From positions 960,001 to 1,024,000 of the forward strand of contig CAWEMM010000006.1 of NCBI GenBank assembly GCA_963810095.1: a DNA stretch of 64,000 nucleotides, written 5' to 3'. How positions within the stretch are numbered: position 1 is the first letter of the stretch; every line of letters begins with the position of its first letter. The notes below the pieces were generated by a model that had not been told where the DNA came from, did no database searches, and saw only the letters and a program-made list of their open reading frames with translations. A program made the position numbers and the translations under genes. Below are positions 23,786 to 38,464 of the stretch, in pieces. The stretch comes from an uncultured Chloroflexia bacterium. GTDB lineage: Bacteria > Chloroflexota > Anaerolineae > CG2-30-64-16.

Positions 23786-23830
23786 GCAGGTGGCCGGCCT
23801 GTGCATCGCTGCACGGGCCGGCCATCTGTT
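23786..23830 (+). terminator. Probable terminator hairpin
   Basis: CAGGTGGCCGGCCTGTGCA-tcgc-TGCACGGGCCGGCCATCTG-TTT. Confidence 0.65.
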
Positions 23831-23835
23831 TAAAC

Positions 23836-23945
23836 TGATCCGAAATAGGACCTGGTGCAACTGATTGAACTGATCCGCACTGTCCGCTGGGTAGAAATCG
23901 TGATAATCAGTCCGATCCGTTCAATCAGTGTCCCATTTCAGATCA
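23836..23945. repeat. Palindromic mini-element, family A, copy 3
   Basis: TGATCCGAAATAGGAC...GTCCCATTTCAGATCA; closely similar to 45855-45960. Confidence 0.85.
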
Positions 23946-23966
23946 CCACGCGAGCCAGGCGCGGCG

Positions 23967-25112
23967 TCAGTCCGTGGGGGGTGCGGGACACTCCTTGTCG
24001 GCCGCCTTCTTGCCGAGATCTTCCAGGGGCTTGCGCAGGAACAGCTTTTCTTTCTCCGCCTGCAGCGCCGCCTGATCCCCAACCGCCAGCACCCACTCAC
24101 CCTTCTGAGTCACAATCTCCTCGAGAGCATTCATGCTGAACTGGAAGCCGTGCAGGTCGGACGGCTTCAGCCCGGCGCCCAGCTGTGCCAGGCGCACGAT
24201 GTCGACCAGCCCGAGGTCGGTGGTATACAGGTCAGACATCGCCGAGAGCAACTGCGGCAGCCGGGGAAGCAGGTTGACCTGGAGCGCCTTGTTGCGCAGC
24301 GCCCAGATAAGCTGCTGCTGGCGCTGGCTCCGCCCGAAGTCGCTCGTCACGTGGCGGTAGGTCACAAACTTGCGCGCCTCGTCGCCGTTGAGCGTTACGT
24401 CTCCCGCTGGCAGCGACCAGGGCACGTACTCGGTCATTTGCGCATCTTTCGGCGTGGCCTCGTAAAGCGGACAATCGAGATGCACCGTCACCCCGCCCAA
24501 CGCGTCGACCAGCTTCGTTAGCCCATTCAGATGGATGCGCACGTAGTGTTGCGTGGGAATCCCCAGCGTCTCTGAAATCACCCGCGCCGCGAGCGCCGGC
24601 CCGCCGCCCGGATACCCTGTCTTCTCTCCAACGTAGTCCGTGATGTTGATGCGTTCCTGGCCATACGTCGGGATGTCCACGTACAGATCGCGCGGGATGC
24701 TGATGATTCCGACCTGCTGCCGCTCACGGTCGATCGCCAGGACCATGATCGAGTCGGTACGCCACGATTCCCAGCCCGGCCGCTGATCCTGGCCCAGGAT
24801 CAGGATGTTCTCGGTCTTGTCGAGCCGGTGCGCAACGCGTGTCTCGATGTCGGCTAGCAAGCCGGGTTGCTCTGCAGGTTCAAATGTGCCCAGCCGCTCG
24901 CGCGCCAGCTCGACATCCGAATTCAGTGTGTATGACTCGGCGACGACGTCGAGGTACTTCTCCCGTTCGGCCGGCGCCAGGTCCAGCCCCGCCGCATCCG
25001 TCCACTGCACCGGAAACACCCACCACCCCAGCACCATCCAGCCGATGAGCAATCCGGCGAAGAGGGCCAGCCCGACTGCGATCCAGGAAAGCCGTCGATT
25101 GTCTCGTCGCAT
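23967..25112 (-). CDS. LCP (LytR-CpsA-Psr) family cell-wall phosphotransferase
   Basis: NILILGQD.R, RTDSIMV, SIPRDLYV, SDFGRSQRQQ. Confidence 0.9.
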   Translation of the reverse strand: MRRDNRRLSWIAVGLALFAGLLIGWMVLGWWVFPVQWTDAAGLDLAPAEREKYLDVVAESYTLNSDVELARERLGTFEPAEQPGLLADIETRVAHRLDKTENILILGQDQRPGWESWRTDSIMVLAIDRERQQVGIISIPRDLYVDIPTYGQERINITDYVGEKTGYPGGGPALAARVISETLGIPTQHYVRIHLNGLTKLVDALGGVTVHLDCPLYEATPKDAQMTEYVPWSLPAGDVTLNGDEARKFVTYRHVTSDFGRSQRQQQLIWALRNKALQVNLLPRLPQLLSAMSDLYTTDLGLVDIVRLAQLGAGLKPSDLHGFQFSMNALEEIVTQKGEWVLAVGDQAALQAEKEKLFLRKPLEDLGKKAADKECPAPPTD

Positions 25113-25264
25113 GGCCGCGGTCCTTCTGTCACAGGCTTACAAATAAAGAGTGATTCGATTCTATCACAGGCTCCTGCAAGACACAACCTGCCAAAAAGGC
25201 TGAAAAGGCGATCATCGAGGGCTGGGCGTCAGGCCTGCCTGCGCCACGAGGACCGTGCGTTATC

Positions 25265-25318
25265 TTGACACCCATCACAAAGAGCGTTACACTCGCTGCA
25301 TCTTTATAGTGACTATAA
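25265..25318 (+). promoter_or_regulatory. Promoter and candidate TetR operator
   Basis: TTGACA-N17-TACACT (25265-25293), then palindrome TTATAGT-G-ACTATAA (25304-25318). Confidence 0.65.
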
Positions 25319-25340
25319 TTTTACAGCAGGTAAACACAGC

Positions 25341-25952
25341 ATGACACTCTCACTCCGCGACGTCAAGCGCTCTCTGACCGAACAGACTATCGTCGAGAAG
25401 GGCACGGCCCTCTTCAAGCAGCACGGCTTTGCGCAGGTGTCGGTGCGCCAAATCGCAAAAGCCTCGCTGGTCAGTGAAAAGACCGTCTTCAACTACTTCC
25501 CCTATAAGGAACTCATCGTCCTCGCCGGCGCCCAGCCGGCATTGAATGAGATCATGGACGCCATCCAAACCGAGATCGACAACATCGCCGAGCCCACCGA
25601 GGTGCTCCGAAAGTTCGGCACGGACCTGGCCGATTGGTGCACCGCGAACCCCGAGGTCGCCTGCATCGTCATCGCCGAGCTTCTTTCGCCCGACCCGCAG
25701 CGCCTTGCCAGCGCGGTCCGCTCCCTGCCCGATTTCTACAACCCCATTCGCACGGTCATCACGCTGGCGCGCGCCCAGGGCAAGCTGCGGCCCGAGGTGG
25801 GCGTCGAGTACGCGACCGACTTCTTTTTGAGCAACGTGTTCAACGTCATCCGCAGCCACGTGGCGGTCGGCCAGTTCGACCGCCTGCGCGGCATGCTCAA
25901 CGCGACCCTGGAGATCTTTCTCCACGGTGCTTTCGCGGCGTCTCAGCCTTAA
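25341..25952 (+). CDS. TetR/AcrR family regulator
   Basis: LFKQHGF..VSVRQIA....VSEKTVFNYFPYKE HTH. Confidence 0.9.
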   Translation: MTLSLRDVKRSLTEQTIVEKGTALFKQHGFAQVSVRQIAKASLVSEKTVFNYFPYKELIVLAGAQPALNEIMDAIQTEIDNIAEPTEVLRKFGTDLADWCTANPEVACIVIAELLSPDPQRLASAVRSLPDFYNPIRTVITLARAQGKLRPEVGVEYATDFFLSNVFNVIRSHVAVGQFDRLRGMLNATLEIFLHGAFAASQP

Positions 25953-25983
25953 GCAACCGGGTTTCTTCGAGAAACCTGCTTGC
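25951..25983. repeat. REP-like palindrome (GAAACC family)
   Basis: AAGCAACCGGGTTTCTTCGAGAAACCTGCTTGC. Confidence 0.6.
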
Positions 25984-26007
25984 GGCCTGCTTCCCCGAGG
26001 AGCCAAC

Positions 26008-27485
26008 ATGAACGTATTGCTGCTATATCCGGAATTTCCGGATACCTTCTGGAGCTTCAAACACGCGCTGGCGTTTGTCGACAAGTCGGCCGGGATGCCC
26101 CCGCTCGGGCTGCTCACGGTGGCCGCGCTGCTGCCCCCCGAGTGGAACCTGCGGCTGGTGGACATGAACGTCGCTCGCCTGACCGAAGGCGACCTGGCAT
26201 GGGCCGGCTGCGTCTTTGTCAGCGCGATGGTCGTCCAGCGCGACGCGACCTGCTGCTGCCATCCGGCGGTGCAAGGCGGCGGGCCTGCCCGTGGTGGCGG
26301 GTGGTCCGCTCTTCACGGCCGAGTGGGAGGACTTCCCCCAGGTCGATCACTTCGTCCTGAACGAAGCCGAAATCACCCTCGCGCCCTTCCTGGCAGACTT
26401 TGCGGCCGGGCGAGCGAAGCGCGTGTATGCAACCGACGAGTACGCCGACATGCACGCCTCCCCGCTGCCGCGCTGGGACCTGGTCGACCTGAAGCACTAT
26501 GCGACGACTGCGGTGCAGTTCTCGCGGGGCTGTCCGTTCGACTGCGAGTTCTGCAACATCACGGCCCTCTACGGCCACCGCCCGCGCGTCAAGACCGCCG
26601 CCCAGATTGTCGCCGAGCTCGACCTCTTCTATGGCCTCGGTTGGCGCGGCCGGGTCTTCTTCGTGGACGACAACCTGATCGGCAATCGCAAGTACCTCAA
26701 GGAGCAGCTGCTTCCCGCCATCATCGAGTGGCGCAAAGGCAAACGGGCCGGCCTGCCGTTCAACACGGAAGCGTCCATTAACCTGGCCGACGATCCGGAG
26801 TTGATGCGCCTGATGGTCGAAGCGGGCTTTGACGGCGTCTTCATCGGCATCGAAACGCCCGACGAAGAGCAGCCTGGCCGAGTGCAACAAGAAGCAGAAC
26901 GTGGGCCGCAACCTGGTCGAGGACGTCAAGCGCATCCAGCGCGCAGGGCTGGAAGTGCAAGGGGGCTTCATCCTGGGCTTCGACAGCGATACCCCGTCCA
27001 CCTTTCAGCGGCAGATCGACTTCATTCAGCGCAGCGGCATTGTCACCGCGATGGTTGGGCTGCTGCAGGCGCCCCCTGCGACACGACTGTGGCAGCGGAT
27101 GGCGGAAGAGGGGCGGCTCGTCGGTGCATTAACAGGCAACAACGTCGAGGCCGCGACGAATATCATCCCGAAGATGCCGCTCGAAACCCTTTACGAGGGC
27201 TACCGCGAGGTCGTCGGGCATCTGTACGAGCCCGAGCATTACTATGCGCGCGCCATGACGTTCTTGCGGGAGGTGAAGCCGCCCAAGTTCAGCGCCCCCA
27301 TCGACGCCGCGTACGTCCGCGCGTTCTTCCGCTCCATGGGTCGCCTGGGCATCGTGGGAAAGGAGCGAGCGCAGTACTGGAAGCTGTTTTTCTGGACGCT
27401 GGGGCGCCGTCCGGCACTTCTGCCCCTCGCCATCACCATCGCGATCTACGGATACCACTTCCGGCTGCTGGCGGAAGCGATCTGA
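26008..27485 (+). CDS. B12-binding radical SAM protein (DUF4070-type), two frameshifts
   Basis: PPLGLLTVAA, GGP; SRGCPFDCEFC; FFVDDN; FIGIETP; FILGFDSD. Confidence 0.88.
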
Positions 27486-27511
27486 ACCCGGTCGCCGAAA
27501 CCGTATTGACC

Positions 27512-27544
27512 CGTACGAAGGGCGGGGGTCTCGCCCTTCGTACG
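27512..27544. terminator. Hairpin (terminator or REP-like) after the radical SAM gene
   Basis: CGTACGAAGGGCG-ggggtct-CGCCCTTCGTACG. Confidence 0.55.
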
Positions 27545-27652
27545 CAAGGGCAACCCGCGCGCGGCGCGTTCAATGCCGCCACCGGCCGGTCCCTTCGTCC
27601 ATGCTGCCCGCTGCCGCCCCCCCAACTTCTCCGTCCTCTGCAAAATCTCCTG

Positions 27653-27681
27653 TTGACCCGAGCGCGCTTCCGCCCTATAAT
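27653..27681 (+). promoter_or_regulatory. Sigma70 promoter of the two-component operon
   Basis: TTGACC-N17-TATAAT. Confidence 0.7.
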
Positions 27682-27778
27682 ACGTTTGCTCCCACCGCCG
27701 CCTCCTCGCTTGCGCTGCACCTCGTCGGACGTTTCCCGTTACCGAATCTCAATCGCCGGGTTTGAGAGGAGGAATCCT

Positions 27779-28429
27779 GTGGATCACACCCCCACCTCGA
27801 TCCTGATCGTCGACGACCACCCCGTCGTGCGCACGGGCATCCGGGCCGTCCTGGTCGCGCATGGCTTTCATGTCGCCGCCGAGTGTGCCAGCGGGTCCGA
27901 CGCGCTCCGCCTCGCCGCCCAAAATTCCTTCGATGCGATCGTGCTGGACGTGAATCTGCCTGACCTCGACGGCCTGGAAGTAACCCGCTGCCTGCGCGCC
28001 CGCGGCGACCAGACGCCGATCGTCGTGCTCACGGTTCGGAATGACAGCCAGACGGTGATGGGGCTGTTCGAGGCGGGCGCAAGCGGCTACGTGCTGAAAG
28101 ACGAAGCAACCGACCACCTTTGCGACGCGGTGCGGGCTGTCGCTCGTGGGGAAACCTGGGTCAGTCCCAGCATCGCCGCAACGGTGATCCGGCGAGCGCT
28201 CGGGGCCGGGGTGGACGTGCCGCCCCACTCGCCCCTGACGCCGCGCGAGCTGGACGTGCTGCGCCTGCTGGCCCAGGGGTTGGACAACGGAGCCATTGCC
28301 CAACAGCTCGTCATGTGCAAGCGGACCGTTCAGAACCACATCAGCATCATCTACGATAAGCTCGGCGTTAGCTCACGCACGGAAGCGCTGCTGTACGCGG
28401 TGCAGCGGGATTGGGTCCACCTACCATAA
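27779..28429 (+). CDS. NarL/LuxR family response regulator
   Basis: ILIVDDHPVVR, LDVNLP, GYVLK; LTPRELDVL..LAQG..N..IA..L...RTV.NH; RBS GAGGAGG before GTG. Confidence 0.92.
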   Translation: MDHTPTSILIVDDHPVVRTGIRAVLVAHGFHVAAECASGSDALRLAAQNSFDAIVLDVNLPDLDGLEVTRCLRARGDQTPIVVLTVRNDSQTVMGLFEAGASGYVLKDEATDHLCDAVRAVARGETWVSPSIAATVIRRALGAGVDVPPHSPLTPRELDVLRLLAQGLDNGAIAQQLVMCKRTVQNHISIIYDKLGVSSRTEALLYAVQRDWVHLP

Positions 28430-28448
28430 GGGTCGGGAGGGCCGGTCG

Positions 28449-30740
28449 ATGCAGAAGCGGTCAAGGCTGGATTCCGCGGTGATCCTGGCGCTGGGCATGC
28501 TCGCGCTGCTCGTGCCCGCGCTTGCGGGATGGGTCCTCGTCGACCAGTCGCGCACCCCGCTCCTGGGCATCTACGTCGACGATGCTGTGCCGCCCCACAT
28601 CACGCAGGCCATGGCCGGCTCGGCCGCGGCCCGCAGTGGGCTGGCTGCCGGCGATACCATCCTGACGGTAGACGGTCGGCCCTATGCGGCATGGCTCGCT
28701 GCACCACGACAAATCGGGCAGCACTACCGTTTCGACCTCCTGCGCGAGGGATCTGCGGAGACCGCCAACGCGGCCATGGGTTCGGTGCTCCAGGCAACGG
28801 GCGTGAGCGCCGGGGCCGCGCTCGTTGTCGCGCTGGCTTTTTGGGCCGCGGGCGTGATCCTCCTCAGCCGCCGCGTCGGCCGAAGCGACGTGCGCGTGCT
28901 GTTTTTGCTGTACCAGGCGTGCGCGGTATGCCTCTTGCTCGGCCTGGCCTACCCTCGCTTCCTGCTGCCCGCACCGTGGATGGTGACATTATCGGTCGCC
29001 GCGCTCATCTTTGCCGGGCCGCTCCTCCTGCACTACCAGATCTCGTATCCGGTCATGCTCGGCGAGCCCGCCCCGCGTCACGCGCTCCTGGGCGCACTCT
29101 ACGCGCTGGCGCTGCTCGGGGCCTGGTGGGCGGCGCGGCGGCCGAGTCCCTGGTCGACCGTGCCCGTCTTCGCCAGCCTGGCGGTGGGGCTGCTTGCGTT
29201 TGGCGTGATGGTTTTCGTCTACCTCCGGGGGGCAGGTTTGCGCGAGCGCCGGCGCATGCGTGTCGGGGGCGTCGGGGCCGTGGTGGGGTTGGGCGTGCCC
29301 CTGGTTGCCTACGTGCTGCCCACCGTGATTGCCGGTTATTCCCCACCCATGCCCCGGTGGTTCGTCAGCCTGTTCCTGCTGCTGATCCCGCTGAGCGCCC
29401 TCTATGCGGTGGCGCGGCACGACCTGTTCGACATCGACCGCCTGATCAACCGGGCCATCGTCTACGGTGCGCTCGCGCTCACCGTCTTTGCGCTGTACCT
29501 GGCCGCCTTCTTCGTCCTCTATCGCTTTATGCCCGAACGCCGGCTCGCGCAGGTCACGGTGCTCGCGGGGCTGAGCGTCTTCATCGGCCTGACGTTCCAG
29601 CCGGCACGCATGCGAATCCAAAAAATTGTCGACCGCCTCTTCTACGCGGGCTGGTACGACTACCCTGACATTGTGGAGCACACGACCGCAGGGCTGGCGC
29701 ACGCACGCGAGTGGGATGCCGTGGCAAACAGCCTGACCGTCGACGCGCCGCAGCGGATGTCGCTGTCGGGCGCGGTGCTCGAAGTTGGGGCTCGGCGTGC
29801 ATCGACGCTGCCCGCCTCGGCGCAGCCCCAGGTCGCGCTTGCACTCGAATGCGGCACGCAGGCGCGCGGGATGCTGGCGCTGTCGCCGGGCATCTCGACG
29901 GCTCACCCCTTACGCCGACCGACCGCCGTATCCTGCGCACCCTCGCCCGCGAGGCCGAGATCGCGCTCCGTCGCGTGCTCTTGCTGCAAGCGCTGCGCAA
30001 TCAGTTAGCCGAGATCCAGGCCGGCCGCGAGAGTCTGGTGCAGGCGCAGCACCAGCTGCTGCGCACGCGCGAGCAAGAACGTGCGCGCCTGGCGCGCGAG
30101 TTGCACGACGGCCCGATGCAGGCGCTCGTGGGCATGAACATGCAGCTTGGCCTCTTGCTGCAGCCGGGCGGCGAGTGCTCGGCTGGCGCCGAGTGTCTCG
30201 GCTGGCGGCGCGCTGATCGAGACACTCCAAGACCTCGGCGCCGAGGTGCGCGGGCTGCTGGGCGAACTCCGCCAGGTTTGCACGGTGCTCCGGCCGCCCA
30301 TGCTCGACACGCTGGGCCTCGAAGCTGCGCTGGCGGCGCTCGCCGCCGAGTGGTCGGCCCAGCAGGGTATCCCGGTCGCAGTCGACCTGCCCGAGGGCCG
30401 GCTGTTGCGCAATCTGCCGGAAGAGGTGGCCGTCAACCTCTACCGCATCGTTCAGGAGGCCCTATCCAACGTTGCCCGCCACGCCCAGGCCAACCACGTC
30501 GTCCTCTGCCTCGTATGCCGCACCCCCTCAGAAGGTCTGGAGCTTACCGTGACCGACGACGGCGTCGGGTGTGTGCTGGGCCCCGTGGACGAGTTAACAC
30601 GCCAGGGACACTTCGGGCTAACCGGCATCCGGGAGCGGGTGGCTCTGATCGGCGGCGCCTGGCGGCTCGAGTCCACTCCCGGCCACGGCACCACACTGCG
30701 CATAACCTGGCGCCCAGGCGCAGCCGCGCCCCTTAACTAA
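28449..30740 (+). CDS. Membrane sensor histidine kinase: PDZ-like, multi-TM, HisKA_3/HATPase; two frameshifts
   Basis: GSAAARSGLAAGDTILTVDG (PDZ); about 8 TMs; ERARLARELHDGPMQ; QEALSNVARHA; DDGVG; GHFGL. Confidence 0.85.
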
Positions 30741-30881
30741 CCCCACCCGGTACCCCGGTACCAATCAACTCCTCTGGAAAATAGTACCGCGCTCAGGTGC
30801 GCCCGAACCCGCTATTTGCTACCCTATGGGCGGCGCAAAACATCCAGACAGGCACGAGTCCCGTCATTACGCCAAGTCGCC

Positions 30882-31252
30882 ATGAGTCGAGTCTTGATCG
30901 TCGATGACCAGCCCGAGTTCCGACTGCACCTGCGCCGGCTGCTGTCGCGGCGGGCCTGGAGGTAGCCGGCGAGGCCGGCAGCATTCTCGAAGCGGAAGCG
31001 CTCGTCTGTGCGCTGCGCCCCGACCTGGCGATTGTGGACGTGATGTTGCCCGGAATGAACGGCGCTGACGGGGCGGTGCGGCTGCTCTCGCTGCTGCCGG
31101 GCTTGCGAGTGGTGCTCGTCAGCGCCTACCTGGACCAAGCGCACATCTTCGAACGAGAGGCGGTGCGTGTGGGCGCCGAGGTCTTCGTGCCAAAGGATCA
31201 ACTCGACCTGGAGCTGGCGCGAAGTTGGAATACCGGCGGGAACAAGCAATAG
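30882..31252 (+). CDS. Single-domain response regulator (receiver), frameshifted
   Basis: MSRVLIVDDQPEFR joins PDLAIVDVMLPGMNG...FVPK. Confidence 0.75.
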
Positions 31253-31264
31253 GAGGCTGTTGAA

Positions 31265-32946
31265 ATGAGCGAGCAAACGAAGCACACCATCGAAGGGCAT
31301 CTTCAATGCGCTGGCGAGGTGGATGTCGCCAAGATCGGGCTGGCCGTCCATGCGTTTGTGGGCGGCAAGCCCGTGGCCGTAGCGCCGGTAGCAGCATCTG
31401 GCGCCTACAAGTTGAGCTTTGCGAGCATGGAGGCCCAGCCCGCGGTCGAGCTTCGGCTCATTCCAGACCGCTTCTGTGACGATGCCGCGCTGTTCCCGGC
31501 CGTGCACACGTCTATGAGCCCGCTCCGCTTCAGCACCTTGAAGGGCGGCGCTAATTACGCGAAAGTGGACATCAGCCTCCCGGCCCAGGCGGTGATCGAC
31601 CTCCAGCGCCATCTGAAGCACTACCTGCTCCATGGCGTCGTGTACACGGTGCGTGATATTATCATCCCGCCCCCGTTCCCCGGTTGGCCGCCCCGGCGCG
31701 CGCTGTTGAAGCGGCCAGTTCCCGCAGCGAAGCTGGACTTCTACGAAGCCTCGTGGGCGGGAATGCCGCCGTACGTTCCCTTCAAGTTGTACACTCGACA
31801 CCTCGGCGTCGCCTATACGGCACAGGACGGCTCCTATGAGTTCGGCTTCGACATGACCACCAGCATTATCACCTGGATGCTGACACACGATGGGCTGCCC
31901 GACATCCAGGTGCGCGTCTCGCAGTTCCAGGACGGTGCCTGGCGGGAAGTCTACCAAAGCGACATTGACTGGAACATCGCAGACGACTTTCAGCGCGATT
32001 ACCTGATCCCCGAGGCCGACGTCAGCCTGCCGCCCGCCGATTCGGCTCGTTGGACACCGGGTTCCGCCCGGTCGCACTGGGCCTGGTCCCGCTCGATGCC
32101 AGCCGTATCCTCGACGGCTACGTGACCTCAGGGCCGGGCGACCCGGTGCAGCTCGCCCACCAGCCATTCTGCGAAACGCTGCGCGTCTTCGGCCGGTTCG
32201 GAGATAACGACCAGGTTTTGTTCTACCGGGTGCTCCTGGCTGCGGCGAAGCAAGATGCGGCCGGAAATTGGGTCGCGGACGGGCCGCCGGAGGACGTGGT
32301 CGACCCGCTCAACAACCAGAAATGGAACGAGGCCGAGCGCGTTTGGAAGTGGCAGGTCCTCGGTCCCGACCCGGCGACACACGCCTATCGCAACGTCGAC
32401 CGGGAGCCGGAAGCGGATTGGTTCGAGCACGAACTGAAGGTGACGTGGAACAGCGCCAACAAGACGGACGGCTACTACCTGCTCAAGATCGTGCCGTGCG
32501 ACGAGCAGGGAACCCCGACGGGCCTGGGCTACGAGCTGCCGGTGCTCAGGACAGACAACACGCTGCCCCAAGCCGAGCTGACCGTACAGAACCCGCTGCC
32601 CGACGCCAAGTGCGGCTCACTTACGCTGCGGGCCGATCGCGAGCTGACGTTCGCCGTGACCGCCTACAGCCCCGCGGGCCACATCCTCGAATACCAATTG
32701 CTCGGAAACCGTGGGCTGACGGCCAGGGCCGCGGGAGACGCGGTGACGGGGGCCCGGCCGGCCGGAGCAAAGTGGAACGGCGTGTACCAGGCGCCCACCG
32801 TCTTTACCGTGAACGCCGACGCGTCAGGCTGCTCGGCTGTGGCCTACAACTTCGAGTTGATGGTCCAGGGTGCGGCCACCAACGGCTACAGCTCGTGGCT
32901 GTACTCCAGGCGCGTCTGGAAACAGACCAACCTCGTCGTGTATTAG
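31265..32946 (+). CDS. Large hypothetical protein (~560 aa; ORFs 31265-32125 and 32050-32946 probably one gene)
   Basis: RBS AGGAGG; host-like codon usage; -1 overlap near 32050; beta-rich, Trp/Tyr-rich; no family recognised. Confidence 0.7.
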
Positions 32947-33006
32947 CCGTGTTTGGGGCGAGCGAAAGAGCCCGGCTGGCACTGCCGTGAAAGCGAGAGC
33001 AGTCCG

Positions 33007-34364
33007 ATGAAACCGTCGCAGTACAACTGCTTCTATGCGATCGACGACGCCGTGATCCTGGGCTTCAACACCCTCTCGACCGCGCTGCTGGCGCTGACGC
33101 CGGCCGAATTCGCCGGGCTCCGCTGCTTCTGCGCAGAGCCCGGCGCCGGGGCATTCGATCGCCTGGCGCTGCCGCAACTGGGGCGGCGGCTGGCCGAGGC
33201 CGGCATGGTTGTGGACGCAGAGACGGACGAACTGGCGCAGGTACGCGCCGCGGCAAGAGGCGCTGCGCGGCGCGGGTCGCTGCCTGAGCCTGACCATTAC
33301 ACCCACGTTGGATTGCAATTTCCGGTGTGCATACTGCTTCAGCTATTTGCAGCGGGGCCGGATGACGAGCGAGACCCAGGATGCGGTGGTGCGGTTTGCC
33401 GAGGCCCGGTTCGACAAGGTGGAAAAGCTGGCGCTCAAGTGGTATGGCGGCGAGCCCACGCTTTGCCTTGACGTGATCGAGAGGCTGGCGGGCCGGCTGC
33501 GAGAGGCCGCCGCACAGCACGGTGTCACCGTCGAAGGCGACGGCATCGTAACGAACGGGTACGTTTTGAACCGGCGGACGGGGGAGCGGTTACGGGGTGC
33601 GGGGATCACGCGGGCGCAGGTCACACTCGACGGCGCCCGCGCGACCCACGACGCCCGCCGTCCGCTGCTGGGCGGCGGTTCGAGCTTCGATCGCATCGTC
33701 GATAACCTAACCCAAGTTCACGACCTTATCGACATCGTCGTGCGCATCAACGTCGACCGGGGCAACTCCGGCGATGCCATACGAGTGCTCGACGCGCTGG
33801 CAGACGCAGGGCTCCGCGGCAAAGTCTGGCCCTACCTGGGGCATGTGCGGCCCTACTCCGACGCCTGCGGCGACATCGCCGGCGACTGCCTTTCGGATCG
33901 CGAGTTCAGCAAGCTGGCGCTGGCGCTGGCCAAAGAGGCGTTGCTGCGGGGCTTCGCCCTGGTCGACCTGCCGGAATCGCAGCTTGGCGGGGTGTGCGGC
34001 GCATGCCAGCCGCACAGCTACGTGGTTTCGCCCGACGGACTGCTGTTCAAGTGCTGGGCCGAGGTGTCCTGCGGCCCGGCAGCGTCGATCGGCTCGGTGT
34101 TTCGTGACGAACGCACGGCCGAGGAAGAGGCAAACCTGCGGCTGTACCTGGATTGGGATGTCACCCGTGACCACGAGTGCCGCGGCGTGCCGTATGCTCC
34201 CCATCTGCATGGGCGGCTGCCCCCACCAACGTCTGCGTCAGCACCGGCCCGCCTGCGCCTCATGGCGCTACACACTGGGCGAAACGCTGGGCTTGCAGCA
34301 CCAACTCAATGGGTTGACCGCGCGGTTGGCCGCCGAATCCACTGCGGCCGCCGCGCACGGATAA
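33007..34364 (+). CDS. Radical SAM/SPASM-domain maturase, two frameshifts
   Basis: N-terminal MKPSQYN...FNTLSTAL extension; CNFRCAYC; WYGGEP; TNG; QVTLDG; SPASM C..C...G.LFKCW and C..C..LPICMGGCP....C. Confidence 0.88.
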
Positions 34365-34397
34365 GGGCGGATCACAGATCTTTAGAAGGAGCGTCCA

Positions 34398-34703
34398 ATG
34401 GAAGAGAGGAAACTGGTCCACACCTGCAAGGTCCTGGACAAGGGCCAGCTTGTGGTCAAGATCCACGTAGAGTGCGCCAAGACGCTCGAGCGTTTGGAGC
34501 ACGAGGAGTACGTCTGCGCACACTGGGATGAGCCTGGCTGCAAGTTCGACCTTGGTATCGACAAGCGGAACTGGGAGGAACTGGTCACGCAGGTGGTGAC
34601 CCAGCCGGTGCAGATGGCGCTGGCGGCCAAGGCTCTCCAGTACCAGGTGAAGGAGCTCACAACGGAAATCGCCACGCTGAAGAAGCAGGGCGTCCACAAC
34701 TGA
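34398..34703 (+). CDS. Small Cys-containing protein, candidate radical SAM substrate
   Basis: Strong RBS AGAAGGAG; biased codon usage; 4 Cys, YVCAHWDEPGC; C-terminal coiled-coil-like segment. Confidence 0.75.
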   Translation: MEERKLVHTCKVLDKGQLVVKIHVECAKTLERLEHEEYVCAHWDEPGCKFDLGIDKRNWEELVTQVVTQPVQMALAAKALQYQVKELTTEIATLKKQGVHN

Positions 34704-34720
34704 TCGACGGGGGAACAAAC

Positions 34721-34774
34721 AATCCCTGCGCGTCCCGGCTCGCGGCCGCCCTCCTTCCGGGCTGCGCAGGGATT
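34721..34774 (+). terminator. Hairpin ending the rSAM operon
   Basis: AATCCCTGCGC..CCCGG...CCGGG..GCGCAGGGATT. Confidence 0.55.
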
Positions 34775-34837
34775 CTCCCCTTAAATGATCCGGGCAGAGA
34801 ACCTCGTTGTCCCCTGCCCGCAAGATGGCGTGCGCAT

Positions 34838-34872
34838 GAGAAACCAGGTTTCTTCGAGAAGCCTGGCTTTTC
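34838..34872. repeat. REP-like palindrome (GAAACC family)
   Basis: GAGAAACCAGGTTTCTTCGAGAAGCCTGGCTTTTC. Confidence 0.7.
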
Positions 34873-34877
34873 GGTTC

Positions 34878-35555
34878 TTACACCGGCGGGGCGGCGCGGC
34901 CCAGCAAGGCGGCCAGCGCATCACGCTGGTCGGTGTTGATAACTGCCAATACCTCATCGCCCGCATGCAACTGGGTATCGCCGCGGACCGCGTACACGTC
35001 TTCCTTGCGGATCACCGCTGCCAGAGTGCAGTCTTCGGGCAGCTTCAGATCACGGACGAATGCACCGTCGGCCGGCGCGCCCGGCACGATCTTCTCCTCG
35101 ACCAGCGCGACCGCGCCCTTGCGCAGCTTGAGGAGGGTCATCATGTCGCCCAGCGACATCTCCTCCGCGATCAGCTTCGCCATCAAATCGGCCTGGTTCA
35201 GGGCCACGTCTACGTGGAACTTCTCGTCAAAGAACCAGGCGCTGCGCGGGTTATTGATGCGCGCAATCGTGCGGCCCACGCCATACCGCTCGCGCGCCAT
35301 GTAACACAGCACCAGGTTGTCCGCATCGTTCGTCGTGCACGCCGCCAGGACCTGCGCATCCCGAATCCCCGCGCTCTCCAGCACGACCGGGTTCGTCGGA
35401 TCGCCTTGGAAGATCACCTCGGTCGGCAGTTCATGATGAATGCGATCGAGCACATCCGTGCGCTGCTCGACCAGGTGCACCCGGTGGTTCCCGTTCACAA
35501 GCACCGATGCGAGTTGGGCGCCCGTGCGGCCGCCGCCAGCAATCACGACAAACAT
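34878..35555 (-). CDS. trkA: TrkA family RCK potassium uptake protein
   Basis: IAGGGRTG Rossmann motif; RCK-C domain. Confidence 0.88.
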   Translation of the reverse strand: MFVVIAGGGRTGAQLASVLVNGNHRVHLVEQRTDVLDRIHHELPTEVIFQGDPTNPVVLESAGIRDAQVLAACTTNDADNLVLCYMARERYGVGRTIARINNPRSAWFFDEKFHVDVALNQADLMAKLIAEEMSLGDMMTLLKLRKGAVALVEEKIVPGAPADGAFVRDLKLPEDCTLAAVIRKEDVYAVRGDTQLHAGDEVLAVINTDQRDALAALLGRAAPPV

Positions 35556-35556
35556 C

Positions 35557-36216
35557 TCAGACCTCCTCGACCTCGCTCAGTCGCTTGCGCAAACCTTCGA
35601 TGCCGTCCTGCGTCGCGCTGACGTGGATGACGTCGCCGCCTCGCAGGGGCAGGCTCGGCGACGGCAGCATGGCCCGGCCAGCACGCGATACCGCGACCGG
35701 CTGGCAGTTGCCGTTGTAGAGCACCTCCGTCAGGTGCTTGCCGTTCCACGCCTTCGGCACCGTGAACTCGTAGACCTCGACCTCGCCGTTGCCGGCCGAG
35801 AAGACCGTTCGCAGCGAGCCGCCACCTAACATCTCTTCGATGCGCTGAGCGCCCCAGACACTCGGGCTGACGAGTTGGTAGCCAAATGCTTCGTGCAGGC
35901 CGCGCTTGGAGGGCTCGTAATCGCGGACGACAATGTTCTTCACGCCCCACACGGTCCGCGCCGCGTGCGCGACGACCGCGTTGACCGAATCCACCGGCGT
36001 TACGGCGGCCAGCGCGTCTGCGGTTTCAATGCCGGCCCGCAGCAAAAGCTCTCTGCTCAGCACCTCGCCAGCGAGGGTGCGGCCACGGAAGTCGGCCGGC
36101 AGGTTTTTGAAGGCGTCCGGGTCGCGGTCGAGCACGACGACCTTCTGTCCTCGTTTGTAGAGGTTGTAGGCCAATTCCGAGCCGACCCGGCCGCAGCCGA
36201 CGACAATCACGTTCAT
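35557..36216 (-). CDS. trkA: TrkA family RCK potassium uptake protein
   Basis: VVGCGRVG Rossmann motif; RCK-C domain. Confidence 0.88.
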   Translation of the reverse strand: MNVIVVGCGRVGSELAYNLYKRGQKVVVLDRDPDAFKNLPADFRGRTLAGEVLSRELLLRAGIETADALAAVTPVDSVNAVVAHAARTVWGVKNIVVRDYEPSKRGLHEAFGYQLVSPSVWGAQRIEEMLGGGSLRTVFSAGNGEVEVYEFTVPKAWNGKHLTEVLYNGNCQPVAVSRAGRAMLPSPSLPLRGGDVIHVSATQDGIEGLRKRLSEVEEV

Positions 36217-36245
36217 GTAATTCCTCTATCTGATTGACTGCTTGA

Positions 36246-38186
36246 CTATTGCACCTGGTAGGGCACATCTGTGATGACGATGCCCGGCCGGCCACGTAAC
36301 GCCAACGACAGCCAGGTCGCAGCCTGGGTGTGCAGGAGGTTGGCGGCCGCCTGCTTCGGCACGAACTGCGGCACCACGACTGTAATCATGTCATTCGGCT
36401 GCCGCTCGCGATCGATCGTGTCGATGTACTCGAGCATCGGCTCCATCAGCAGCCGGTACGGCGATTCGAGCACCACGAGCCGCACGCCTTCACCCCACGT
36501 CTCCCACTTGTTGCGCACGCGCTCCGTGTCCTCCGGATCGATCGACACGTGCACCGCCGTGACGTCCTTCGACAGCCCCTGCGCGTAGCGCAGTGCAGCA
36601 AGCGTTCCGCGGTGCACCCCGCTAACCGGCAAAATCACCCGGTGGCGCGAGATTGGCGGCGGTTCGCCGAAATCCTCCAGCGAGAGCGACCGCGCCAGCC
36701 CACGGTAGTGCCGGTGGATTGCGTTCAAGCCAAAGACGACGATCGGGATCAATATCAGGATGATATACGCACCGTCCCTGAACTTCGCCACCGCAAACAC
36801 GATTGCAACGACCGCGGTCAACACGGCACCAAAGCCGTTGACAAACATCTTCCCGCGCCAACCCGGCTCGAAGCGCAGCGTCGAGCCCCGCTCCTTGATC
36901 TCCTCGTCACCGCGCAACTGGCCGATCTTGCGCCAGCGGATCGCCATCCCGGTCTGCGAGAGGGTGAACGAGAGAAAAACGCCGATCGCATAGAGCGGGA
37001 TCAACGCGGTCACCGACGCCTTGAAGATGACGATCAGGATCGAGGCCATCAGCGCCAACACGATGATGCCGCGAGAGAACACGAGACGGCTGCCCCGGTA
37101 CGCGAGTTGGCGCGGCAGAAATCCGTCCTGGCCCAGCAGCGCCGCGAGCCGTGGAAAGTCCGCGAACGCGGTGTTGGCCGCCATGATCAGGATCAGCGCC
37201 GTGGCTGCCATCAACAGCCCATACCCCAAGTTCCGCCCGTCAAATACGGTGCGGCCGATCTGCGAGATAACCGTTTCGAGCTCCGACGGCACTGCGCCGA
37301 TCTTGACGGCCAGGAACGTGATGCCGAGCAGCAGCACCCCCAGGATCGACGACATCCAGATCAAGGTGATGCCAGCGTTGCGGCTGCGCGGCTCTTTGAA
37401 CGCGGGAATGCCGTTCGAGATGGCCTCCACCCCGGTCAGCGCGCTGGTCCCGTTGGCGAACGCCCGCAGAATGAGGAAGAGCGAAACGGCTTGTGCCCCG
37501 TGAATCATCTCGAGCTCGGGCGGGTCGACCACCGTGCCCAGGCTGCCGGTGAGGTAGCGGAACAGGCCCAAGAGCACGGTCGCAAACATCATGACGATGA
37601 AGAAGTACGTCGGGATGGCGAAGATCGTCCCTGATTCCTTTACCCCCCGCAGGTTAATCACCATGACCAGCACGACCAGCGCCACCGCGATCTCGACGCG
37701 CCACGGGAACAGGGCCGGCACGGCCGACGTGATCTGCGCCACACCAGAGGAGATAGACACGGCGACCGTCAGGATGTAGTCCATCAACAGCGCCGCGCCG
37801 GCCACCTGCGCGGGCAACTCGCCCAGGTTGTCGCGCGAGACAATGTACGCGCCGCCGCCCGACGGGTACGCATGGATCGTCTGCTCGTATGAGATGGTTA
37901 CAATGGCGAGCAAGCCGACAATCGCGATCGATAGGGGAATGGCATAGTGAAACGCCGCCGTGCCCGCAAGCGCCAGGATGACCAGCATTTCCTGCGTGGC
38001 ATACGCGGACGACGACATTGCGTCGGAAGAAAAGACCGCCAGCCCCACGATCTTGCGAATCGCCTGGTGCGGTGCGTCGGCGGTCGTGAGCGGTCGGCCA
38101 AACAGCCAAGTGCGCCAGGACCGGCCGGGAACGTACCCGGCCGTGCGGTGTTGGACCCCAACGGGGTCTTCATCAGGACGTAGCAT
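36246..38186 (-). CDS. APC family permease, KimA/YdaO-like K+ transporter
   Basis: SSDAMSSSAYA, YPSGGGAY, DYILTVAVS, LTGVEAISNG, LIPLYAIGVF; C-terminal cytosolic domain SPYR. Confidence 0.88.
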   Translation of the reverse strand: MLRPDEDPVGVQHRTAGYVPGRSWRTWLFGRPLTTADAPHQAIRKIVGLAVFSSDAMSSSAYATQEMLVILALAGTAAFHYAIPLSIAIVGLLAIVTISYEQTIHAYPSGGGAYIVSRDNLGELPAQVAGAALLMDYILTVAVSISSGVAQITSAVPALFPWRVEIAVALVVLVMVINLRGVKESGTIFAIPTYFFIVMMFATVLLGLFRYLTGSLGTVVDPPELEMIHGAQAVSLFLILRAFANGTSALTGVEAISNGIPAFKEPRSRNAGITLIWMSSILGVLLLGITFLAVKIGAVPSELETVISQIGRTVFDGRNLGYGLLMAATALILIMAANTAFADFPRLAALLGQDGFLPRQLAYRGSRLVFSRGIIVLALMASILIVIFKASVTALIPLYAIGVFLSFTLSQTGMAIRWRKIGQLRGDEEIKERGSTLRFEPGWRGKMFVNGFGAVLTAVVAIVFAVAKFRDGAYIILILIPIVVFGLNAIHRHYRGLARSLSLEDFGEPPPISRHRVILPVSGVHRGTLAALRYAQGLSKDVTAVHVSIDPEDTERVRNKWETWGEGVRLVVLESPYRLLMEPMLEYIDTIDRERQPNDMITVVVPQFVPKQAAANLLHTQAATWLSLALRGRPGIVITDVPYQVQ

Positions 38187-38293
38187 ACATGCTAGGAAAG
38201 CGCTGAGAGGCGCGTCCCAACTTCCTCACTTCCACAACTCGGAGAAAAACATACAGAGCGATATGGGCCGCTCCAGGAAGCGCTCACGTAAAC

Positions 38294-38376
38294 AAAAAAA
38301 CCCACCCGTAGAACGGGCAGGCCTTGCCGGATACGTTGCTTCTCAACCATTATACTCTGCCCCACTGGACTGTCAA
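38294..38376 (-). promoter_or_regulatory. Consensus promoter followed by a short leader with intrinsic terminator (attenuator)
   Basis: TTGACA (38376-38371)-N16-TATAAT (38354-38349); then CCTGCCCGT-tct-ACGGGTGGG-TTTTTTT. Confidence 0.75.
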
Positions 38377-38464
38377 ACGTCGCAGAGACTGTTCCAAGTT
38401 CCACCATTCAGGTCACGCCCCCAGAAGTGCGAAGGCGACTTTATAAACTATATGATTAACTTAC

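Follow-up and report, generated by a model that had tools for sequence, protein, structure and literature searches.

The 64,000-nucleotide stretch analyzed here (the window) is part of contig CAWEMM010000006.1 of an uncultured Chloroflexia bacterium, whose genome assembly (GCA_963810095.1) comprises 6.13 Mb in 16 contigs with an estimated completeness of 88.5%. It contains an accessory block of ~7.4 kb (window 27480–34900) that is composed of two gene units and includes a radical S-adenosylmethionine (SAM)/SPASM enzyme. Unit 1 consists of a NarL-type regulator and a HisKA_3 kinase with a PDZ-like segment and many transmembrane segments. The genes of unit 2 are tightly spaced (12, 60, and 33 nt apart) and encode, in this order, a stand-alone receiver, a 560-residue protein, the enzyme, and a small protein that contains Cys. 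A gap of 141 nt between the kinase and the receiver separates unit 1 from unit 2. An enzyme of this class and the same order of the four unit 2 genes are present in two diverged loci, the window and the contig L083. All six genes lie on the plus strand within 27.6–34.8 kb (Table 1). Each element listed in an earlier reading made from the sequence alone (the sequence-only reading), from the promoter-like site through the hairpin, was found in its place on this strand.

Table 1. Features of the accessory block in window coordinates.
Feature	Position	Strand	Description
Sigma-70-like promoter candidate TTGACC-17-TATAAT, predicted	27653..27681	+	In the 290-bp gap 5′ of the regulator
NarL/FixJ-type response regulator	27779..28429	+	Receiver and GerE helix-turn-helix; intact; GTG start after GAGAGGAGG ribosome-binding site
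Sensor histidine kinase	28449..30740	+	Three frames; first transmembrane segment, extracytoplasmic PDZ-like segment, ~8 transmembrane segments, HisKA_3, HATPase_c
Stand-alone CheY-like receiver	30882..31252	+	DD, D, S, and K residues present; one frameshift
560-residue all-beta protein	31265..32946	+	Rare unnamed family; no signal peptide by eye; one frameshift
Recognition-element-like/radical SAM/SPASM enzyme	33007..34364	+	CxxxCxxC and seven-Cys SPASM motif; two frameshifts
101-residue protein, candidate substrate	34398..34703	+	4 Cys, 2 Trp, C-terminal heptad-patterned helix
Hairpin 3′ of the last gene	34721..34774	+	18-nt arms, 89% complementary, 18-nt loop
Terminator-like stem	34844..34866	+	10 pairs, T-rich tail; between the block and a convergent TrkA-like gene

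The split genes were used unrepaired, and the analysis was made on fragments together with intact natural homologues. The window fragment of the enzyme matches PF04055 (1e-16) and contains the CxxxCxxC motif, as expected of the radical SAM superfamily. This motif sits ~100 residues from the start of the protein, not behind an extension of ~80 residues as had been estimated. In the window, the frames on either side of the shift at 34180 together encode all seven SPASM cysteines, which follow the SPASM pattern C-x(9-15)-G-x4-C ... C-x2-C-x5-C-x3-C ... C. TIGR04085 (cut-off 27) gives 48–57 bits in intact relatives and only 18.3 bits on the window fragment because of the frameshift. Across an alignment of 32 relatives, neither the CxxxCxxC motif nor any of the seven SPASM cysteines varies.

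The intact homologue from L083 was modeled with a pLDDT of 88 and a pTM of 0.87. The N-terminus of the model is built from strands at residues 7–12, 16–21, and 26–30, followed by helices at 32–43, 49–52, and 56–64. With three strands and then three helices, the domain looks like a recognition element (RRE) of the kind found in enzymes that act on RiPPs (peptides made by ribosomes and modified after translation). In such maturases, this winged-helix domain binds the leader of the substrate. The model can be superimposed on the thioether maturase CteB with a template modeling (TM) score of 0.66–0.71 over 445 of 452 columns, and CteB also ranks first for the enzyme in a profile search of solved structures. 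The proposed maturase-type SPASM enzyme is supported by the radical SAM core, the SPASM motif, and the RRE-like N-terminus of the model.

The central fragment of the enzyme matches ~60 protein clusters at 46–64% identity. These proteins are ~450 residues long and nearly all metagenomic, and the few that are named are labeled only "radical SAM protein". A quick maximum-likelihood tree, built from 81 rows, places the window fragment in a clade of 55 rows (53 database clusters) with an SH-aLRT support of 100 and a stem of 0.58. Next to this clade are another of 14 rows, Zixibacteria proteins among them, and a group with a true TIGR04463 member. TIGR04463 gives 218 bits for the window fragment and 273–303 bits for six intact clade members or near relatives, below its cut-off of 525, which the control protein P0084 passes with 528 bits. 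The Clo7bot model TIGR04334 gives 169 bits for the fragment and 246–296 bits for intact relatives (cut-off 600), and the PapB family NF047865 gives 93.5 and 107–124 bits (cut-off 340). The CefB, geopeptide, FlmE/OhkG, and PapB models score below TIGR04463 and Clo7bot. Together, these six best NCBIfam matches are all maturases of Cys-containing peptides or proteins. The model of anaerobic sulfatase-maturating enzymes (anSME), TIGR03942, gives 44 bits for the window fragment, 62–82 bits for six intact clade relatives, and 92.5 bits for P0084, below its cut-off of 349.

L083 is an independent metagenome contig with the gene order receiver, 560-residue protein, enzyme, and an open reading frame (ORF) of 121 codons. 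Its receiver shares 63–68% identity with that of the window, its 560-residue protein 48–59%, and its enzyme 43–52%. The 121-residue protein (L083:4260–4625) contains 8 Cys and a C-terminal heptad-patterned helix. It also has an internal tandem repeat of ~9 residues just before the sixth Cys. The window and L083 enzymes sit in different basal subclades of the 55-row clade, so the gene arrangement either dates far back in the clade or travels as a unit. Co-folding of the L083 enzyme with its 121-residue neighbor gave a score of 0.01 against a mark of 0.32, in a run with an uncertain partner fold and no controls.

The small protein of the window is probably encoded by a real gene, because its ORF is preceded by a AGAAGGAG ribosome-binding site 7 nt upstream and has a codon-position GC content of 0.64/0.29/0.85, like the neighboring genes; an overlapping antisense ORF shows the inverse pattern. 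No additional small ORF fits into the intergenic gaps of the block. The four cysteines are located at positions 10, 26, 40, and 48, and each is followed by an Asp or Glu 3–5 residues on, forming two CX3D motifs, one CX2D, and one CX4E. A search of the ESM Atlas with the protein gave no usable match. As no homologue is detectable, its conservation between the two loci is positional and compositional only.

The 560-residue protein matches no Pfam or NCBIfam model, and its gene is present in a single copy in the genome. A word-based search found 12 full-length relatives, none of them with a relevant Pfam domain, and a profile search of 1.84 billion representatives returned 705 matches at E ≤ 0.001 and 56 at E ≤ 1e-30. 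A search of the Atlas returned unnamed clusters only. The family is all-beta, with a model pLDDT of 72, and Foldseek matched the model only to generic tandem Ig/Fn3-like arrays at TM scores of 0.1–0.25. One segment of the protein is a Big_13/Big_7-like repeat, and an N-terminal extension with a helix-hairpin-helix is found in some relatives. Proteins of 800–2700 residues (P0196, P0197, P0205, P0215, and P0218) that carry right-handed beta-helix/NosD-like domains, one of them also Peptidase_C25, contain the C-terminal half of the family as well.

Sixteen metagenome loci contain the 560-residue family, and the enzyme is also present only in L083, the locus of the closest relative. Elsewhere, seven loci have an identified gene or at least 0.5 kb on the downstream side of the 560-residue gene, and the enzyme is in none of them; no receiver lies upstream in any of the 12 with at least 0.5 kb upstream. 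An acetolactate decarboxylase gene is found upstream in 6 of those loci. At 11 of the 15 enzyme-less loci, the ORFs that were read included no small Cys-bearing one with a heptad tail. The family thus mostly occurs without the enzyme and is not tied to it.

More distant relatives of the enzyme (≤39% identity) were located among the matches listed from metagenome contigs. None of these 80 loci contains the 560-residue or the 101-residue gene. Cys-rich ORFs adjoin the enzyme in many of the distant loci listed, ranging from peptides of 35–65 residues to proteins of 114 and 234 residues; in a crude count among the matches listed, they lie downstream in 13 of 81 loci and upstream in 22 of 81. Beside the enzyme, one locus encodes a 54-residue peptide with 7 Cys and a 36-residue peptide with 4 Cys (L049:2815–3115), another a 114-residue protein with 11 Cys (L076:3490–3834), and a third a 234-residue protein whose start is twin-arginine-like and which contains a Cys-rich stretch (L031:8282–8986). 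The small Cys-rich ORFs of L010, L012, L014, L023, L036, L049, L050, L079, and others share a leader, M-x-aromatic-I/V-I/V-x-P, which is not clearly present in the 101-residue protein or its L083 counterpart.

The regulator contains Response_reg (1e-28) and GerE (1e-16) domains, and the kinase contains HisKA_3 (4e-8) and HATPase_c (5e-12) domains, a combination that defines a NarL/FixJ two-component pair. The sensor part of the kinase is composed of one transmembrane segment, a partial PDZ match, and ~8 further transmembrane segments, and has only one weak paralogue in the genome. The PDZ match (PF00595) reaches 24.0 bits against a cut-off of 23.2 and covers only profile positions 24–60 of 81; PDZ_6 reaches 25.6 bits against a cut-off of 27. 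On the block, PADLOC reported only generic radical SAM and receiver similarity.

The block is accessory. When seven further genomes of the genus were searched at the DNA level, both flanks (23966–27479 and 34898–38379) were recovered at 70–85% identity, and no match longer than ~170 nt to 27480–34900 turned up in any of the seven. A simple insertion cannot be shown because the flanks sit on different contigs in the relatives, and no direct repeats flanking the block were found. The enzyme occurs in one of 37 genomes of the order, namely this one. When 400 other genomes were sampled from the class and 400 from the phylum, each sample contained one matching genome, at 31% and 36% identity, so that no relative closer than 36% was found outside this genome in the order, class, and phylum samples. 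No close relative was found in viral contigs. According to the domain-model searches, 27480–34900 encodes no transporter, peptidase, or sulfatase domain, as the sequence-only reading had said. Its further point that the block does not fit a standard RiPP or anSME layout is borne out by this lack and by the low anSME score. A canonical RiPP cluster is likewise not recognized here, since protease and exporter domains are missing and the 101-residue partner has no recognizable leader.

Six single-base shifts split four of the six block genes. They are located at ~29890 and ~30180 in the kinase, ~30950 in the receiver, ~32047 in the 560-residue gene, and ~33260 and 34180 in the enzyme. Two more are found in the upstream B12-binding radical SAM gene. 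The break at 34180 falls between the second and third SPASM cysteines, and a short-read contig leaves out one base exactly at this point; the public-run short-read contigs are otherwise identical to the covered stretch. The shift at 34180 is an assembly error. The B12-binding radical SAM gene (25927–27485), which carries a DUF4070 domain, is conserved in the genus and split into three frames here. It is in a single frame in three congeners and is shifted, at different places, in one other assembly of few contigs and low completeness. It is a useful marker for the indel error rate of this assembly. No in-frame stops or large deletions relative to homologues were seen in the block genes. All eight shifts in and beside the block look like assembly errors, and the block genes are therefore probably intact in the organism. 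Single-base indels are frequent in this assembly, and its split genes should not be read as pseudogenes.

Several DNA elements were noted in and near the block. The promoter-like site matches 11 of 12 consensus positions and is the sole such site in 27400–35000, a count that is not above chance because shuffles give 0.8 ± 0.9 at the scan threshold. The 141-nt gap before the receiver is long enough that a promoter could lie in it, and contains a tandem CCGGTACC CCGGTACC at 30747–30762, followed by AGTACCG at 30783–30789. The tandem could be a regulator-binding site and is not conserved 5′ of the L083 receiver. An element of 30–45 nt at 34832–34876, overlapping the terminator-like stem, matches several unrelated contigs of one congener at 85–97% and may be a reused terminator or a repeat. 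Outside the block, a repeat of ~110 bp (window 23830–23946) is present in more than 40 copies of 82–90% identity on at least nine contigs of the genome, with weaker copies in one congener, and may be a small dispersed repeat element.

CrpC (TIGR04463) from Methanococcus voltae installs ranthionine crosslinks in a 28.8-kDa Cys-rich protein encoded by the adjacent gene, and C-X-X-Q/D is noted as suggestive of thioether formation (PMC13692751). TIGR04463, the nearest curated family, thus has one characterized member, and its substrate is a protein. The window enzyme shares its layout with CrpC: an RRE-like domain (~92 residues) leads into a radical SAM core and then a SPASM domain of seven Cys, and the cluster cysteines fall near the same residue numbers (PMC13692751). 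The two systems are also alike in the adjacent gene for the substrate, here a candidate one, in a likely product that is a protein and not a short peptide, and in having no known cluster protease or exporter. However, the relatives of the window enzyme score 273–303 bits against the cut-off of 525 and share ~35% identity with a true TIGR04463 member. CrpA is highly Cys-rich with ten repeats, whereas only 4 Cys and a heptad tail are found in the 101-residue protein. No receiver, 560-residue beta protein, or two-component pair has been described for the Crp cluster.

The ranthipeptide maturases (TIGR04334, CefB, FlmE/OhkG, and PapB) align with the enzyme over their full length, including the N-terminal domain, and also have Cys-containing substrate genes adjacent, but the enzyme stays under all their cut-offs. 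Their precursors are peptides of 35–65 residues with a short conserved leader and many Cys, whereas the candidate substrates here are 101–121 residues long with fewer Cys and no such leader. PapB joins Cys to Asp in CX3D motifs (PMC9413430), and this motif occurs twice in the 101-residue protein. CteB, which acts on SCIFF (PDB 5WGG/5WHY), is the best match among solved structures in both structure and sequence over the full length, but the identity is 19% and the SCIFF model gives 50–76 bits against a cut-off of 425. In the maturation of quinohemoprotein amine dehydrogenase, the radical SAM/SPASM enzyme QhpD forms crosslinks between Cys and Asp or Glu within QhpC, a small subunit that is retained in the cell (PMC13692751); the corresponding family model gives 38–73 bits against a cut-off of 453, and the block encodes no dehydrogenase subunits. 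The anSME enzymes share the radical SAM/SPASM core and differ in that the window enzyme has the extra RRE-like domain and the block no sulfatase gene. By extrapolation from its architecture and nearest relatives, the enzyme may work like the CrpC/Clo7bot/PapB group of thioether maturases, although it fails each membership score. The module differs from described clusters in its receiver, its all-beta protein, its Cys-poor heptad-tailed partner, and its lack of a protease or exporter. No description of such a module was found, at the level of titles and abstracts, in the literature on TIGR04463, ranthipeptides and SPASM enzymes, and Chloroflexota RiPPs.

We tentatively propose, giving it somewhat less than an even chance, that the enzyme crosslinks the small protein encoded downstream, and that the product is kept in the cell and formed under phosphorelay control. 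The small protein would be bound through the RRE-like N-terminal domain of the enzyme, and SAM would be cleaved at the CxxxCxxC cluster. The two SPASM clusters would help to join a Cys sulfur to a nearby Asp or Glu side-chain carbon, giving a ranthionine-type crosslink, or to an alpha carbon. Because the block encodes no protease or exporter, the product is probably a modified protein that the cell retains, as with CrpA or QhpC, and not a released peptide. The receiver would place the module under phosphorelay control, as would the adjacent kinase and regulator in this genome. The 560-residue protein may serve the modified protein as a partner or scaffold, or may itself be a second substrate. 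A bolder version, which seems rather unlikely, would be that the four genes form a self-contained, phosphorelay-gated system that crosslinks an intracellular protein and produces no secreted peptide, and that the modified small protein acts with, or becomes covalently attached to, the 560-residue beta-sandwich protein.

A number of observations weigh against crosslinking of the small protein. The chemistry is extrapolated, because no curated family has a cut-off that the enzyme reaches. The N-terminal domain, in which an RRE or winged-helix fold had been suspected, has the fitting order of strands and helices in the model and matches no Pfam domain. Conservation of the module rests on two instances, as there is one comparator locus, and the two small proteins align by BLASTP with an E value of 0.10 over 16 residues, so that their homology is not demonstrable. 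A search of 5.8 billion proteins with the 101-residue protein returned only itself. This protein has only 4 Cys (4%), far below typical substrates, and they lie in its N-terminal half; RiPP cores are usually C-terminal. The spacing of Cys and Asp or Glu was recognized post hoc in a protein with 16% Asp plus Glu, and the heptad pattern is reached by 35 of 500 shuffles in both the 101-residue and the L083 protein. Three of the four frameshift sites in 30800–34800 have no read coverage. Neither a kinase nor a NarL regulator is seen in the ~530 bp 5′ of the L083 receiver, where an unrelated ORF ends, and alignment revealed no DNA element shared by the upstream regions of the two receivers. Thus, of the dedicated PDZ-sensor two-component circuit claimed by the sequence-only reading, the lone receiver is kept in L083, while the regulator and kinase are not seen there. 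The companion claim, that the enzyme modifies its downstream or upstream neighbor, fares similarly: L083 repeats the 560-residue gene upstream and a small Cys-bearing gene downstream, but the 101-residue protein has no homologue and the 560-residue family is mostly enzyme-less.

Other explanations differ in the substrate, in the reaction, or in whether the genes belong together at all. The 560-residue protein could itself be the substrate or a second one, with the small protein as an accessory, for example chaperone-like as suggested for CrpB. In both loci its gene is the immediate upstream neighbor of the enzyme gene, CrpC and QhpD act on whole proteins (PMC13692751), and an extra Cys in a C-x-x-Q context is found in three of the four closest family members (the window protein, P0121, and P0122) and not in the rest of the family. 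We nevertheless consider this unlikely, as the extra Cys is missing from the fourth member, P0123, the family is not rich in Cys, and the enzyme is found at none of the seven other loci with informative downstream sequence. The module could also be real and the reaction a different one, such as a C–C or C–O crosslink, an epimerization, or another radical reaction in place of a thioether. SPASM enzymes with RRE domains catalyze many chemistries (PMC13692751), and such a reaction would agree with the failure at every curated cut-off, the long stem (0.58) of a clade of its own, and a small protein with few Cys and two Trp. Against this, the six best-scoring families all act on Cys-rich substrates and the nearest solved structure is a thioether maturase; we regard another chemistry as improbable.

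The genes may instead be neighbors without a shared function, the substrate being encoded elsewhere and the 101-residue ORF an unrelated orphan or no gene at all. The ORF without homologues, the varied neighbors of the 560-residue family, and the single comparator locus fit this explanation. It is harder to reconcile with a second locus that keeps the gene order with short gaps at ~50–60% protein identity, with the ribosome-binding site and gene-like codon-position GC of the ORF, and with gaps that fit no other small ORF, and we regard it as quite improbable. That the block is a decaying, pseudogenized remnant with real frameshifts is very improbable. Six shifts in four of six genes would suggest so, and one site only has been checked against reads, but that site is an assembly error, the conserved core gene next door is shifted here and not in three congeners, and the genes carry no in-frame stops or large deletions relative to homologues.

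Most of what is known about radical SAM/SPASM thioether maturases comes from short secreted peptides. To our knowledge, there are few examples of the modification of whole proteins by such enzymes (QhpC and, in 2026, CrpA). The enzyme described here belongs to a clade of 53 database clusters, almost all metagenomic, that is named by no curated family model. If the enzyme does crosslink the small protein, a bacterial case of protein-level ranthionine-type modification would be added, thioether-type chemistry would be linked to two-component signaling, and two families currently without a function would gain one. If the whole module is gated by a phosphorelay, RiPP-like thioether chemistry would extend to a signal-controlled structural or regulatory protein in bacteria.

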